Positions 24,139 to 48,901 of a stretch of DNA of 57,205 bases are shown in pieces. The DNA is taken from IMG/VR virus record IMGVR_UViG_3300032309_001424, positions 1 through 57,205 of that record; one strand, written 5' to 3'. The position numbers and the translations under genes are program-made. The first letter of the stretch is position 1. Each line of letters opens with the position of its first letter. Below the pieces are notes generated by a model, which worked only from the letters and a program-made list of their open reading frames with translations, did not search any database and was not told the DNA's origin. This stretch comes from a virus. Its lineage: Duplodnaviria; Caudoviricetes.

Positions 24139-24624
24139 ATGTGGAAACCAGCTGACAATTTAGAATGGCAAAGAGACGCTTCATGCGCCGATCCTAAAAA
24201 TAAAGAATCAGTTGATTGGTTCTTTTCTAAGGAACCTCAAGAAAAGTATGCAGCTAAGAACATGTGTTTTGCATGTCCTGTGCGTGCACAGTGCCTCCAA
24301 TGGGCTTTAGAGCATCGCCAGATCTGGGGTATTTGGGGTGGTAAAGATGAAGTCGATATTCGTAGAACTTTGTCGGTATCCTATAATGGTGAAGAAACAA
24401 GAAGACGCAGATTTCCTAATTGTCCATATTGCACTGCTCGTCCTTCTAAGCTTGATACTTCTATAGAAGAACTGCCAAACGGAGGACGTTGGACTACAGC
24501 AAAGGTAGTTACCTGTACAGAATGTAATTTTTCATGGAGAAGTCGCACTAGCGCAAATGCAGTAGAGGCTTATAAGCTAGAGAAAGAAGAAAAATCTAAA
24601 AAAAGTTCAAAGAAAACTAAGTAA
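24139..24624 (+). CDS. whiB: WhiB-family Fe-S transcription factor with a C-terminal zinc ribbon
   Basis: WQRDASC...C-x2-C-x5-C and GIWGG; extra CPYC...CTEC. Confidence 0.9.
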   Translation: MWKPADNLEWQRDASCADPKNKESVDWFFSKEPQEKYAAKNMCFACPVRAQCLQWALEHRQIWGIWGGKDEVDIRRTLSVSYNGEETRRRRFPNCPYCTARPSKLDTSIEELPNGGRWTTAKVVTCTECNFSWRSRTSANAVEAYKLEKEEKSKKSSKKTK

Positions 24625-25675
24625 GTTTTTCTTTACAAAAGTTTAGATTTGCCTGAAGTCTTTCATCTGCTGAATCAATATCAACAGCCGCTTGAGCGTA
24701 AGAAGCTGCATCTTCATACATACCTAAGTTGTAAGAAGCAATAGCTGCATAATCGTGTGGTGCTGCACCCCAAGCTTCTGCTTCACACAGATACTCGAGT
24801 GGCTTTTCTTTAATAGCAAGAGCTTCCTTAGCGCATTCAAGCGAGTTAGCCCAATCTTTTCGGTCATAGTAGACCTTTGCAAGATCAACCCATGGTTCTC
24901 TTCTACCTGGAGCTTGATCGATTGCCTTACGCAACCAAATTTCTGCTTCTGCTGGAAGTGATTTAGCAATAAAACGCATTGAAGCAGCACGTTCTGGTGC
25001 CCAGTGTGCGGTAGGCAAAGATAGGTGTCTTTTTAGCTCTGCTGCGGCTTCTATGTAGTGTCCATAAAAATAAAGCTCACGTCCGTAGTAGAACGCATTG
25101 CGATCATTGTATGGATCTTCTTTTACTGAAAGAGCAAGGAGTGGGAGATATTGCGAACGAGATTTAGTTGGGTCTGGATGGTGATGTGTTTCTAAGCCAT
25201 CAATCCATTCTTGTTTTTCTTCCATACCATAAACATAAAGACACTCGTGAACAGGATGGCGCCAACGATATCCTTTACGAGTATGAATGTGATCATAACT
25301 AAATTCTAATCCTGGAGTTCCATCTTCATTCCAAGACCAAATGTGCTTGTATCGAGGACGAGTAACTCCACGCTCCCACGCTGCTTCAAGCAGTGGACGC
25401 CAATTAGGTGTAATTACTTCATCCATATCTAAAGAGATACACATATCAATATCAATAGGGAGTGCAGCTAAAGCAGCATTGCGTGAATCATCAAATCTCC
25501 AAGGAGCAACTCGCACATCTACAACATTAATTCCAAGCTCACGAGCACGTTCTACGGTTCCGTCTGTAGAACCAGTATCAGCAATAAGTAAATAATCGGC
25601 ATCTTTCGATGCTTCAAACCACTTATCAACAAACTGACGTTCATTAAGTGCAATTGTGTAAATAGCTACTTTCAT
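24617..25675 (-). CDS. Family 2 glycosyltransferase with C-terminal TPRs (putative protein O-glycosyltransferase)
   Basis: IALNE, DTGSTDGT, WRFDDSRN, LDMDE (DxD), VHE; helical TPR-like C-terminal half. Confidence 0.88.
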   Translation of the reverse strand: MKVAIYTIALNERQFVDKWFEASKDADYLLIADTGSTDGTVERARELGINVVDVRVAPWRFDDSRNAALAALPIDIDMCISLDMDEVITPNWRPLLEAAWERGVTRPRYKHIWSWNEDGTPGLEFSYDHIHTRKGYRWRHPVHECLYVYGMEEKQEWIDGLETHHHPDPTKSRSQYLPLLALSVKEDPYNDRNAFYYGRELYFYGHYIEAAAELKRHLSLPTAHWAPERAASMRFIAKSLPAEAEIWLRKAIDQAPGRREPWVDLAKVYYDRKDWANSLECAKEALAIKEKPLEYLCEAEAWGAAPHDYAAIASYNLGMYEDAASYAQAAVDIDSADERLQANLNFCKEKLT

Positions 25676-46900: not shown

Positions 46901-48901
46901 ACCTGTAGGTCCTGTTACACCTTGAATACCTTGCGGACCAACATCACCAGTTCTTGCAAAGGTGATGATAATGTCTTCATTATCTGAGAATGATGTTGCA
47001 AGACCGCTTACATAAGAAACTGGAACTGTGAAGTATCCACTGTTTTCTGTAATCGAATTTGTAATAGCAAAGAGTGCAAAGTCTGCTGAGTTTGTTTTGT
47101 TGCTAACTCGTAAGTGACCCTTAATTGGGCTTGTTGAGTCGTCAATAGTCCGAAGGAACTGTTGCACATCAATTGCGCCATCAGTCTCGTCGTCAATAAA
47201 TAAGTTTGTTGCAAGTTGAAGATCTAGATTATTGAAACGAAGCTTTCCAGTTCCTGGATCTGTTTCTGTAGCATTAGCTGTAAATGTGTAGTCAAAGCTT
47301 GCGCCACCAAAATTACCGATTGGTCCAGTAGCACCAGTTGCACCTGTAGGGCCAGCTACTCCAGTAGGTCCTGTTGGTCCAACAACATTGCTTGCCGCAC
47401 CAGTAGCACCTGTTGGTCCAGTATCTCCTGTATCACCCTTGACACCTTGAGCACCAGTTGCACCTGTAGCGCCTGTAGCACCAGCACCAGTTGGGCCTGT
47501 GGCACCTGTAGCACCAGTTGGGCCAGTTACACCTGTTGCACCTGTAGGGCCAGCATTACCTGTAGGTCCAATTCCACCAGTTGCACCAGTTGCACCTACT
47601 GGACCAGCTACTGTGCTTGCCGCACCAGTAGCACCTGTTGGACCTGCAGCACCAGTAGCACCTGTAGCGCCAACATCTCCTGTATCACCCTTAACGCCTT
47701 GTGCACCTGTAGGTCCTGCAACACCAGTCGCTCCAGTAGCACCTGTCGCACCAACAGCACCTGTTGCACCAACAGCACCTGTCGCACCAACAGCACCTGT
47801 TGGACCTGTAACTTGAGAAGGAGCACCAGTAGCTCCTGTTGCACCTGTTGCACCAGTTGCACCTGTTGCACCAGTAGGGCCTTGTGCACCAACATCACCT
47901 GTGCGAGCAAAAGTAATGATGATGTCATCATTGGCGCTAAAGCTATCTGCTAAACCAGATACATATGCACAGTTGACTTTAAAATAACCAGTGTCTTCTG
48001 TAACAGAAGTAATTGTAAATAAACCAAAATAATTTGCATCAGACTTACGAGCTATGCGGAAGTGTCCCTTTAGTGTGCTTGTTGAGTCATCAATAGTGCG
48101 TAAGAAAGATTGAAGATCGATTGCTCCATCTGCTTCATCATCAATGAACATGTATGTAGCAGCTGAAAGACTTGCATTGTTAAATTTAAGTTTTCCAGAT
48201 CCTGGATCAGAATCTGTTGTGTTGGTAGCAAAGGTATAGTCAAATGTTGCTCCACCAAAACTACCTGCAGGACCTGTTGCACCAGTTGGTCCCGTTACGG
48301 TAGAAGCTGCACCAGTTGCACCAGTAGCACCAGTCGGGCCAACTGCACCAGTAGGACCAGTTACTGTGCTTGCAGCACCTGTAGCACCAGTTGCACCAGT
48401 TGGACCAGTTATGCCGGGACCAGTTGCACCAGTGGCTCCTGTAGGTCCAGTACTTCCAGTTGGTCCACCTGCAGGTCCCGCTGGTCCTGTTGGACCTTGT
48501 GGGCCTTGCGATCCAGCTAATCCACGAGGTATATCTGTTCCAAGAGGAGAAGTTGTTACAGGCTCAACTGTGTCAAGTTTTGTGATATCTACACTTGATG
48601 CATTTCCTAAAGGTAAATAAAATCTAAAAGAATATGGGCGAGCGCCACGAATACGAACTGTTGCGGTGTAATACCAACCACGAGGGCTAAGATCTAAATC
48701 ATCTGTACATGGAAGACTGACTGTAAATTGACCAGTTGCATTAAGTGTTACAGTGATTGGAGTAGAAAGAATTGTCGCATTATTGGCGTCTTCAATACGA
48801 CTAGATGGAGTAAATGTAACTGTTCCAGATGCAGCAAGACCAGAGCTCTTTAGGTATTGCCCAAAGACCGTCCTTACGCTGACATCATTAGAATAGGGCA
48901 T
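43985..48901 (-). CDS. Giant collagen-like fibre protein (1638 aa)
   Basis: N-terminal GTVTFTP attachment-type domain; many Gly-X-Thr runs interrupted by globular modules; C-terminal head domain. Confidence 0.88.

Follow-up and report, generated by a model that had tools for sequence, protein, structure and literature searches.

The window analysed here spans an entire linear IMG/VR virus record (IMGVR_UViG_3300032309_001424, 57,205 bases, completeness estimate 43%), and it carries a block of 13 large open reading frames (ORFs), all on the minus strand from position 48901 down to 24617, in which collagen-like fibre proteins and large structural proteins are followed by a methyltransferase (MT) and a glycosyltransferase (GT) as the last two ORFs (Table 1). 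Collagen repeats are found in five intact minus-strand ORFs, which bears out an earlier note on this DNA that had described five collagen-like proteins in a co-oriented block ending in a Methyltransf_24-like enzyme and a GT2 enzyme with tetratricopeptide repeats (TPRs). Counting triplets in runs of at least four Gly-X-Y, we obtained a total of 408 triplets over these five ORFs, with Ala (39%) and Pro (38%) together occupying 77% of X positions and Thr occupying 63% of Y positions. This corresponds to 256 Thr, in line with the same note's description of overwhelmingly G-P/A-T triplets offering hundreds of Thr. All block proteins are also Thr-rich overall (12-20% Thr). Plus-strand ORFs within the collagen genes (e.g., 28708-29133 and 42357-42770) were discarded as Gly-Pro-Val antisense shadows.

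Table 1. Features of the collagen-like fibre block, its boundary gene and the tail module of the window.
Feature	Position	Strand	Match or basis
Collagen-like fibre protein, 1638 aa, first gene of fibre block	43985..48901	-	PF01391 7e-63, 11 stretches
Short collagen-like fibre, 233 aa	43253..43954	-	15 triplets; tail-fibre and tail-collar PHROG matches
Collagen-like fibre protein, 628 aa, 84 triplets	41354..43240	-	PF01391 1.4e-25
Beta-propeller-like repeat protein, 305 aa, Ycf48/BNR-like	40435..41352	-	DUF6242 3.5e-6, below cut-off
Collagen-like fibre protein, 216 aa, 38 triplets	39569..40219	-	PF01391 1e-13
Large structural protein, 1048 aa	36337..39483	-	two He_PIG Ig-like domains (8e-15), C-terminal glycine-rich domain
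Giant structural protein, 2019 aa, internal glycine-rich domain	30266..36325	-	phrog_5838 8.5e-138
173-aa protein	29735..30256	-	N-terminal domain shared with 28704-29759
Collagen-like fibre protein, 351 aa, 41 triplets	28704..29759	-	PF01391 1.6e-10; PHROG matches in 25 families, tail fibre predominating
Small Thr-rich protein, 129 aa, 20% Thr	28304..28693	-	composition
499-aa protein, last structural gene, minor-tail or tail-fibre-like	26801..28300	-	phrog_5313 1e-26
Class I S-adenosylmethionine (SAM)-dependent methyltransferase (MT), 192 aa	25908..26486	-	Methyltransf_24 4.3e-13
GT-A (GT2) + TPR glycosyltransferase (GT), 352 aa, predicted SgtA-like	24617..25675	-	Pfam and PHROG
WhiB-family regulator, convergent with GT, block boundary	24139..24624	+	PF02467 1.5e-16
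Tape measure	4105-7383	+	
Major tail protein, head-tail adaptor, three minor tail proteins	tail module within 107 to ~14,000	+	
Fibre with Peptidase_S74 chaperone	tail module, 107 to ~14,000	+	

Domain searches and structure prediction place the terminal enzyme of the block nearest to glycosyltransferases acting on peptides or proteins. It matches Glycos_transf_2 (5.2e-5, 23.7 bits for a cut-off of 23.3), TPR_2 (4.7e-7), and phrog_13126 (1e-113), and its AlphaFold2 (AF2) model (pLDDT 97.5, pTM 0.92) is organised as a GT-A domain (residues ~1-165) followed by a helical/TPR domain (176-351). Over an alignment of 76 homologues, the motifs DTGSTD (33-38), D83-x-D85-E86, and H143-E144 are invariant or nearly so, the fully invariant residues being D33, G35, S36, D38, D83, D85, and E144. 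The best solved folds, over both domains, are those of SunS (E 8.8e-15, TMq 0.65, 373 columns) and ThuS (5.5e-14), at 13-16% identity in the fold alignment, with the third-ranked match reaching only 5e-8. A family profile similarly matched GmaR (2.2e-14), SunS (1.8e-12), and ThuS (5.5e-11) in the catalytic domain; every one of these closest solved relatives glycosylates a peptide or protein. No hydrophobic run of at least 12 residues is present in either GT or MT, and both are predicted to be soluble; an NCBIfam search returned nothing useful for either. The GT family is large, with 3816 clusters (50% identity, E <=0.001, representative search) and, in a separate search, 5282 of 8000 scored candidates matching at E <=1e-5. 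Some family members (P0121, P0122) are single polypeptides with two to three copies. The TPR part of GT (residues ~260-350) also shows a weak likeness to the collagen-peptide-binding TPR domain of prolyl 4-hydroxylase: PDB entry 2v5f matches at 9e-6, amid many generic TPR matches, and PF23558 (TPR_P4H) reaches 9e-5 against a related GT (L171:1483-2568) and is listed for close homologues in precomputed Pfam annotations.

To gain a view of GT across viruses, we pooled two sets of viral contigs, one retrieved via a different family member and the other, used as a control, mostly via its methyltransferase domain. Collagen ORFs were found near GT in 61 of 85 GT-positive viral loci compared to 5 of 75 GT-negative ones (odds ratio 35.6, Fisher p 2e-18, relatedness uncorrected), and this association was retained after clustering of the GTs, with 16 of 20 clusters at 70% identity and 7 of 8 at 60% identity being collagen-positive. 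All viral collagen ORFs (79/79) lie on the GT strand, and Thr occupies 62% of the Y positions across their 4063 triplets. For whole phage records, collagen ORFs were detected in 9 of 9 that encode GT and in 3 of 8 that lack it, the latter with a single ORF each.

A comparable neighbourhood was observed in bacteria. Scanning one genome per species with a 13-sequence alignment, we identified 586 relatives among 600 candidate stretches, and examined the loci of the best 80 of these 586 (43-57% identity), mostly from Clostridia and Bacilli and including Ilumatobacteraceae, Nanopelagicales, Muribaculaceae, and Prosthecobacter assemblies. A collagen-like ORF flanks GT in 52 of these 80 loci. It is adjacent in 42: in 40 it immediately precedes GT on the same strand, no more than 400 bp away, in one it lies downstream on the same strand, and in another on the opposite strand. 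In the remaining 10 the distance is 0.5-3 kb, frequently with a second, tandem copy of GT in between. Thr occupies 4-96% of the Y positions in the nearest collagen ORFs, and at least 30% in 48 of the 52, and collagen ORFs are otherwise few per bacterial genome. Among more distant homologues, for which 30 matches were obtained across 401 genomes of one order and a 1.5 kb flank was viewed, 19 of 30 loci include a Thr-rich collagen ORF. These include a distant tier (23-27% identity, full length) in which GT comes directly before the collagen gene, the order described for sgtA-bclA3 of Clostridioides difficile; for example, a 361-aa GT whose gene immediately precedes a collagen ORF of 467+ aa shows 23% identity to the window GT in an alignment spanning residues 1-346 (E 4e-21). 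At least two tandem GT2-TPR paralogues stand beside a collagen-like gene in 26 of the 80 bacterial loci (L084-L163).

In a FastTree phylogeny, the window GT groups with good support in a 23-row clade, mostly viral and also including Nanopelagicales and Prosthecobacter assembly rows, next to another viral clade and to a 63-row Bacillota clade. A collagen neighbourhood is found in all four main GT clades (10/17, 13/17, 16/23, and 37/51 loci). Taken together, these comparisons provide good support for a physical linkage between this GT family and Thr-rich collagen-like genes in both bacteria and viral contigs.

The penultimate ORF of the block encodes an enzyme which we propose to be a glycan O-methyltransferase. 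MT matches Methyltransf_24 well above threshold (50.5 bits, cut-off 26.3) and the O-methyltransferase family Methyltransf_3 just under it (1.6e-4, 21.4 bits, cut-off 22), and a single-sequence PDB search returned only weak matches to caffeoyl-CoA O-methyltransferases (best E 0.01). The proposed glycan target is based on gene fusions: MT is 33-44% identical, over its full length, to a domain that immediately precedes GT2-TPR in 5 of the 64 long GT family members, i.e., in the same order as the two window genes, and 12 of 23 longer MT relatives carry GT2, GT25, GT1, or TPR domains. In 70 related viral contigs (67-98% identity), which belong to a lineage common in freshwater metagenomes, MT accompanies GT in 63 loci and lies within 600 bp of it in 50. 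A DNA methyltransferase, as labelled in PHROGs for weak matches (7e-9), was considered and rejected, since the family is repeatedly fused to glycosyltransferases. The content of this region varies across relatives. A gene of the Trp-halogenase family (flavin-dependent halogenase), absent from the window, is present beside GT in 36 of the 70 related loci (e.g., L027:11077-12585, L049:8411-9988, L069:2-1066) and in Actinomycetia phage DSL-LC01 (L001:18433-20004), either between MT and GT or after GT. In a more divergent relative (L075:8188-15728), whose GT is 68% identical to that of the window, collagen genes stand on both sides of GT; the place of MT before it is taken by a Fringe-like glycosyltransferase (PF02434, 5e-11), and a Gly_rich_2 protein follows.

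The collagen-like proteins themselves match tail-fibre PHROGs (e.g., phrog_5073, 3e-27), in part because of their repeats. The short fibre 43253-43954 is composed of a conserved N-terminal "IDFP...W" domain, its collagen triplets, and a C-terminal beta knob, and scores below the Pfam cut-off for PF01391 (E 0.0018) despite its 15 triplets. In a low-confidence AF2 model (pLDDT 60.6), the best fold match of its C-terminal region (residues 93-231) is the C-terminus of the Dettilon tailspike (Z 11.0, root-mean-square deviation 3.0, 124 residues); lower in the ranking come reovirus sigma1, the heads of adenovirus fibres, and receptor-binding heads from phages. No BclA entry was present among the 50 matches listed for this region, and an ESM Atlas search returned unnamed viral clusters only. 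Since the neighbouring proteins resemble tail-fibre, minor-tail, and virion structural proteins, and since this one knob resembles receptor-binding heads, the collagens of the block are better read as tail-type, putatively receptor-binding fibres, which would represent a second set in this phage. The exosporium-like coat or nap suggested in the earlier note is thus not supported and was rejected in favour of a tail-fibre interpretation: no protein of the block resembles head or decoration proteins, leaving aside the broad heading "head and packaging: virion structural protein" under which PHROGs lists phrog_5838.

An N-terminal domain is common to 41354-43240, 43253-43954, and 39569-40219, and homologues of the 173-aa protein 29735-30256 are in many relatives fused to a long collagen region of 17-80 triplets. 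In the largest collagen (43985-48901), the 230 triplets fall into 26 runs, between which lie short inserts rich in beta structure and two globular repeats of ~110 aa, with 12 G..S.V.GP interruptions. Across the five collagens, the triple-helix regions are interrupted 21 times by G-x-x-S-x-V-x-G-P, mostly as GAASTVTGP, and are also broken by ~24-residue inserts of the type GDxW/Y...YVY/W...W...G, which resemble conserved kinks or beta-hairpin knots. Both giants, 30266-36325 and 36337-39483, carry a glycine-rich domain (phrog_22713), to which an annotation of the DSL-LC01 homologue as "ALK tyrosine kinase receptor" is presumably owed, and the smaller one also matches phrog_5838 (virion structural protein, 5e-20). 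The C-terminal 870 aa of 30266-36325 have counterparts in DSL-LC01 (61% identity) and in T4-like cyanophages (38-45% identity), where genes such as S-PM2p175 are annotated as "virion structural protein", an indirect sign that the fibres may be part of the virion. Over residues ~133-300, the last structural protein, 26801-28300, shares 29-44% identity with minor tail or tail fibre proteins encoded by Arthrobacter phage Shoya, Curtobacterium phage Teagster, and Streptomyces phages Dryad and Rooney. For 40435-41352, matches to NCBIfam Ycf48 and BamI-like models were weak, and the DSL-LC01 counterpart is annotated as a photosystem II assembly factor, while the small Thr-rich protein 28304-28693 had no match in Pfam or PHROG searches. 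In relatives, the fibre block additionally includes a subtilase (Peptidase_S8) in 34 of 70 loci and a CBM_4_9 carbohydrate-binding protein in 31 of 70 (examples at L027:5041-6633 and L027:8718-9383), neither of which is found in the window.

Based on its gene content, the window is a fragment of a WhiB-encoding siphovirus-type actinophage near DSL-LC01, a phage described as assembled from a freshwater metagenome (PMC10611076). A siphovirus tail module occupies the plus strand from 107 to ~14,000, and is followed by genes for DNA polymerase I, a helicase, an exonuclease, a Sak4-like protein, and the WhiB regulator, which is a conserved GT neighbour in related loci. Hence ~10 kb of replication genes part the fibre block from the main tail module, and on its other side the block is flanked by an Mre11/SbcD-like exonuclease, a primase, and a large terminase (49015-50268, 51246-55782), with no tail genes. 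The DNA polymerase is 76% identical to that of DSL-LC01 and 56-59% identical to those of large Microbacterium phages, and DSL-LC01 shares the fibre block including its terminal GT. A search of window positions 24000-44000 for near-identical DNA in GenBank phages gave zero matches. Given the WhiB regulator, the GC content of 36-50%, and the place of a Nanopelagicales genome in the GT tree, the host is most likely a low-GC freshwater actinobacterium. In a Nanopelagicales assembly (L128:9315-14568, on a 242-kb contig), a chromosomal island located directly after the cell-division genes mraY, ftsW, murC, and ftsQ encodes a GT2-TPR protein (680 aa), a collagen-like protein (226 aa), a second GT2-TPR protein (359 aa), and a GT2, which suggests that the presumed host lineage carries a GT-collagen cassette of its own.

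The explanation we favour, and hold to be reasonably probable, is that GT, together with MT, modifies the collagen fibres of the window phage. In this view, the block would give a freshwater actinophage a second fibre module, expected to be a late one. Its products would include five collagen-like trimers whose stalks consist of Gly-(Pro/Ala)-Thr, one or more of them ending in a receptor-binding-type knob, accompanied by the two giant glycine-rich-domain structural proteins, and its last two genes would form a modification cassette. In the infected cell, GT would act as an SgtA-type protein O-glycosyltransferase, soluble and composed of GT-A and TPR domains. It would use a nucleotide sugar (by analogy with SgtA, uridine diphosphate N-acetylglucosamine, UDP-GlcNAc), with a divalent cation bound at its DxD motif, and would glycosylate the Y-position Thr hydroxyls of the collagen repeats as the TPR domain grips the extended collagen strand. 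The neighbouring MT, of the metal-dependent class I type, would subsequently O-methylate the sugar. Of this picture, the genes, their motifs, the modelled GT fold, the linkage of GT to Thr-rich collagen-like genes across the family, and the MT-GT fusions are observed, while the acceptor, sugar, and methylation target, a presence of the products in virions, and possible effects on helix stability, adhesion, or shielding are inferred.

Not all of the evidence agrees with this explanation. Against it stand most observations of this paragraph and, among those discussed with the first two alternatives, the location of the homologue in jumbo phages, the inverted pair of L071 and L072, and the PHROG category of GT. 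Flanking collagen ORFs are lacking in 24 of 85 viral and 28 of 80 bacterial GT loci, and GT-less phages such as phiKZ, Ea35-70, and Talia1610 also have collagen-like fibres. In the window, GT lies ~3 kb from the nearest collagen gene, from which it is separated by MT and two other, non-collagen ORFs (28304-28693 and 26801-28300); GT directly adjoins a collagen gene in the relative L075 and in MT838491. A promoter and terminator scan of 24000-29000 returned fewer sites than shuffled sequences and is uninformative on transcription units, and locus counts are inflated by relatedness. An MT homologue is found in none of the 80 bacterial and only one of 80 other viral GT loci, so that the MT-GT pairing is real but lineage-specific, and the halogenase found in half of the related loci (36/70) is not explained by the favoured model. 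Accordingly, the proposals of the earlier note fared unevenly. The co-occurrence it anticipated for GT and Gly-X-Thr collagens was recovered, but that with Methyltransf_24 did not generally extend beyond the lineage; its glycosylated, methyl-capped collagen gains from the genomic linkage and, by comparison, from the SgtA-like architecture, with MT being coupled to GT through frequent proximity in this lineage and through fusions in other organisms, but not as a general partner.

The most serious alternative, which we nevertheless consider unlikely, is that GT (with MT) targets other virion proteins, i.e., capsid, tail-tube, or the Thr/Ser-rich giants, instead of or besides the collagens. Such a role would fit a clade of six related phage records (L080, L081, L197-L200), comprising PaBG, Alexandra, HRDY3, Lu11, and NCTB, with jumbo genomes of 258-314 kb, and the 78-kb Afa-NA1. 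There, a GT2-TPR homologue (27-34% identity) lies just downstream of the DNA ligase gene, and a head maturation protease is found 0-2 genes after it in 5 of 6 records, NCTB having an endolysin gene at this place. Each of the six has at least four short collagen-like "tail fiber" genes, located around large proteins in PaBG and Alexandra according to their annotations; in the two records measured, GT lies 18-37 kb from these fibres, which are Thr-poor (16-24% Thr at Y). The high Thr content noted for each block protein offers further potential acceptors, and Mycobacterium phage capsid and tail-tube C-termini are described as carrying glycans (PMC12619734, citing Freeman 2023). On the other hand, collagen-like ORFs are GT neighbours far above chance over four GT clades, and the sole biochemically studied enzyme of the same architecture is described as acting on the Thr of collagen repeats (PMC7157674).

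Alternatively, the MT-GT pair, along with the halogenase in relatives, could be an accessory "moron" cassette acting on host envelope glycans or small molecules, e.g., for receptor masking or superinfection exclusion, and merely sit at the junction of structural and early genes. PHROGs assigns the GT family to "moron, auxiliary metabolic gene and host takeover", the DSL-LC01 authors treat the glycan genes of that phage as auxiliary metabolic genes (PMC10611076), and the pair is located at the block boundary next to WhiB. Because it is inverted in L071 and L072, where it reads with the WhiB/replication side, the pair can be regarded as a separate cassette, one with variable content given the halogenase of the 36 loci and the Fringe-like glycosyltransferase of L075. 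Such an activity is nonetheless quite improbable for two soluble enzymes without a membrane segment, the closest folds of GT being peptide glycosyltransferases and not polysaccharide or lipid-linked ones, and the collagen linkage being family-wide and found also in bacteria carrying no phage. Finally, an absence of any functional link, with a neighbourhood due to common descent or cassette co-transfer and phage collagens serving as unmodified tail fibres, would be compatible with the frequent relatedness of the counted loci (85 viral GTs collapse to 8 clusters at 60% identity) and with unmodified collagen-like fibres being common in phages, but appears very unlikely given that catalytic motifs are intact and under conservation, that the linkage survives clustering at both thresholds, and that it recurs with different gene orders in clades down to 23% identity.

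Returning to the favoured explanation of a GT modifying collagen fibres, a broader version may be put forward tentatively, as a possibility we hesitate to call probable: tailed phages of several lineages, i.e., freshwater actinophages, other aquatic phages, and possibly the jumbo clade, may build glyco-collagen receptor-binding fibres through SgtA-like Thr O-glycosylation, with a lineage-specific MT cap. The glycan could replace hydroxyproline and shield or tune the fibre, and phage and host might share a surface glyco-collagen. Phage virion glycosylation is documented for mycobacteriophage capsid and tail-tube subunits (PMC12619734, citing Freeman 2023), and Thr O-glycosylation of collagen-like fibres would, if true, represent a second, mechanistically distinct, and widespread case, and would bring to phage fibres an enzyme family whose study has been confined to clostridial spores. 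It would also be relevant to the prediction of phage receptor binding and to bacterial collagens as biomaterials. An old question of collagen chemistry, namely whether glycosylated Thr can substitute for hydroxyproline in triple-helix stabilisation, becomes directly testable in a small system composed of a 216-aa collagen, a 352-aa GT, and a 192-aa MT.

A full-text literature search yielded no description of a phage GT2-TPR/collagen glycosylation system, and the only viral collagen-glycosylating enzyme found described in the literature searched is L230 of mimivirus, which, as proposed for the window phage, has genes for collagen-like proteins and for their glycosylation. L230 differs in belonging to a eukaryotic giant virus and in its chemistry, unrelated to Thr O-glycosylation: it is described as glucosylating hydroxylysine and as joining a lysyl hydroxylase to a GT25-like domain (PMC9614988). 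Mycobacteriophages offer the precedent of an actinophage-encoded glycosyltransferase modifying its own virion proteins (PMC12619734, citing Freeman 2023), with the acceptors described being capsid and tail-tube C-termini and not collagen repeats (PMC12619734). The glycocin S-glycosyltransferases SunS and ThuS and the Listeria flagellin O-GlcNAc transferase GmaR share with GT the combination of a GT-A and a helical/TPR domain, and would share with it the use of a peptide or protein acceptor. Their acceptors, however, are glycocin peptides (Cys or Ser) or flagellin, and the window contains neither a glycocin precursor nor a flagellin gene. BclA-type proteins have a C-terminal C1q/TNF-like trimerising domain, and the genes for BclA glycan biosynthesis differ from those of the window, being rhamnose and anthrose operons. 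BclA also forms a spore nap, and no homologue of the window MT was found beside the 80 bacterial GT2-TPR loci. BclA resembles the window collagens in its Thr-rich collagen-like region of central Gly-X-Y repeats, and provides a precedent for a methyl-capped glyco-collagen, as the O-linked oligosaccharides of Bacillus anthracis BclA are described as ending in the 2-O-methylated sugar anthrose (PMC6222408).

The closest parallel is with SgtA-BclA3 of C. difficile. The two systems differ in that the window encodes a tailed phage whose host lineage is not known to form spores, in the presence of five collagens and giant fibre proteins, these collagens being tail-fibre-like with a knob, in the coupling of MT to GT, and in sequence, the window GT being only ~23% identical to GTs found in an sgtA-like gene order. 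The published description of SgtA gives a 358-aa protein with a GT-A domain (1-260) and four TPRs (262-358), which attaches beta-O-GlcNAc to Thr in peptides taken from the collagen repeats of BclA3, Ser in such repeats serving as an acceptor as well (PMC7157674). Its transfer from UDP-GlcNAc to collagen-repeat Thr is Mn2+-dependent, a type of activity that the window GT may share. Both enzymes consist of a GT-A domain followed by about four TPRs within ~355 aa, are soluble, and carry a DxD motif, and both are encoded in one unit with a Gly-X-Thr collagen-like gene, a neighbourhood that is also seen for the bacterial homologues of the window GT.

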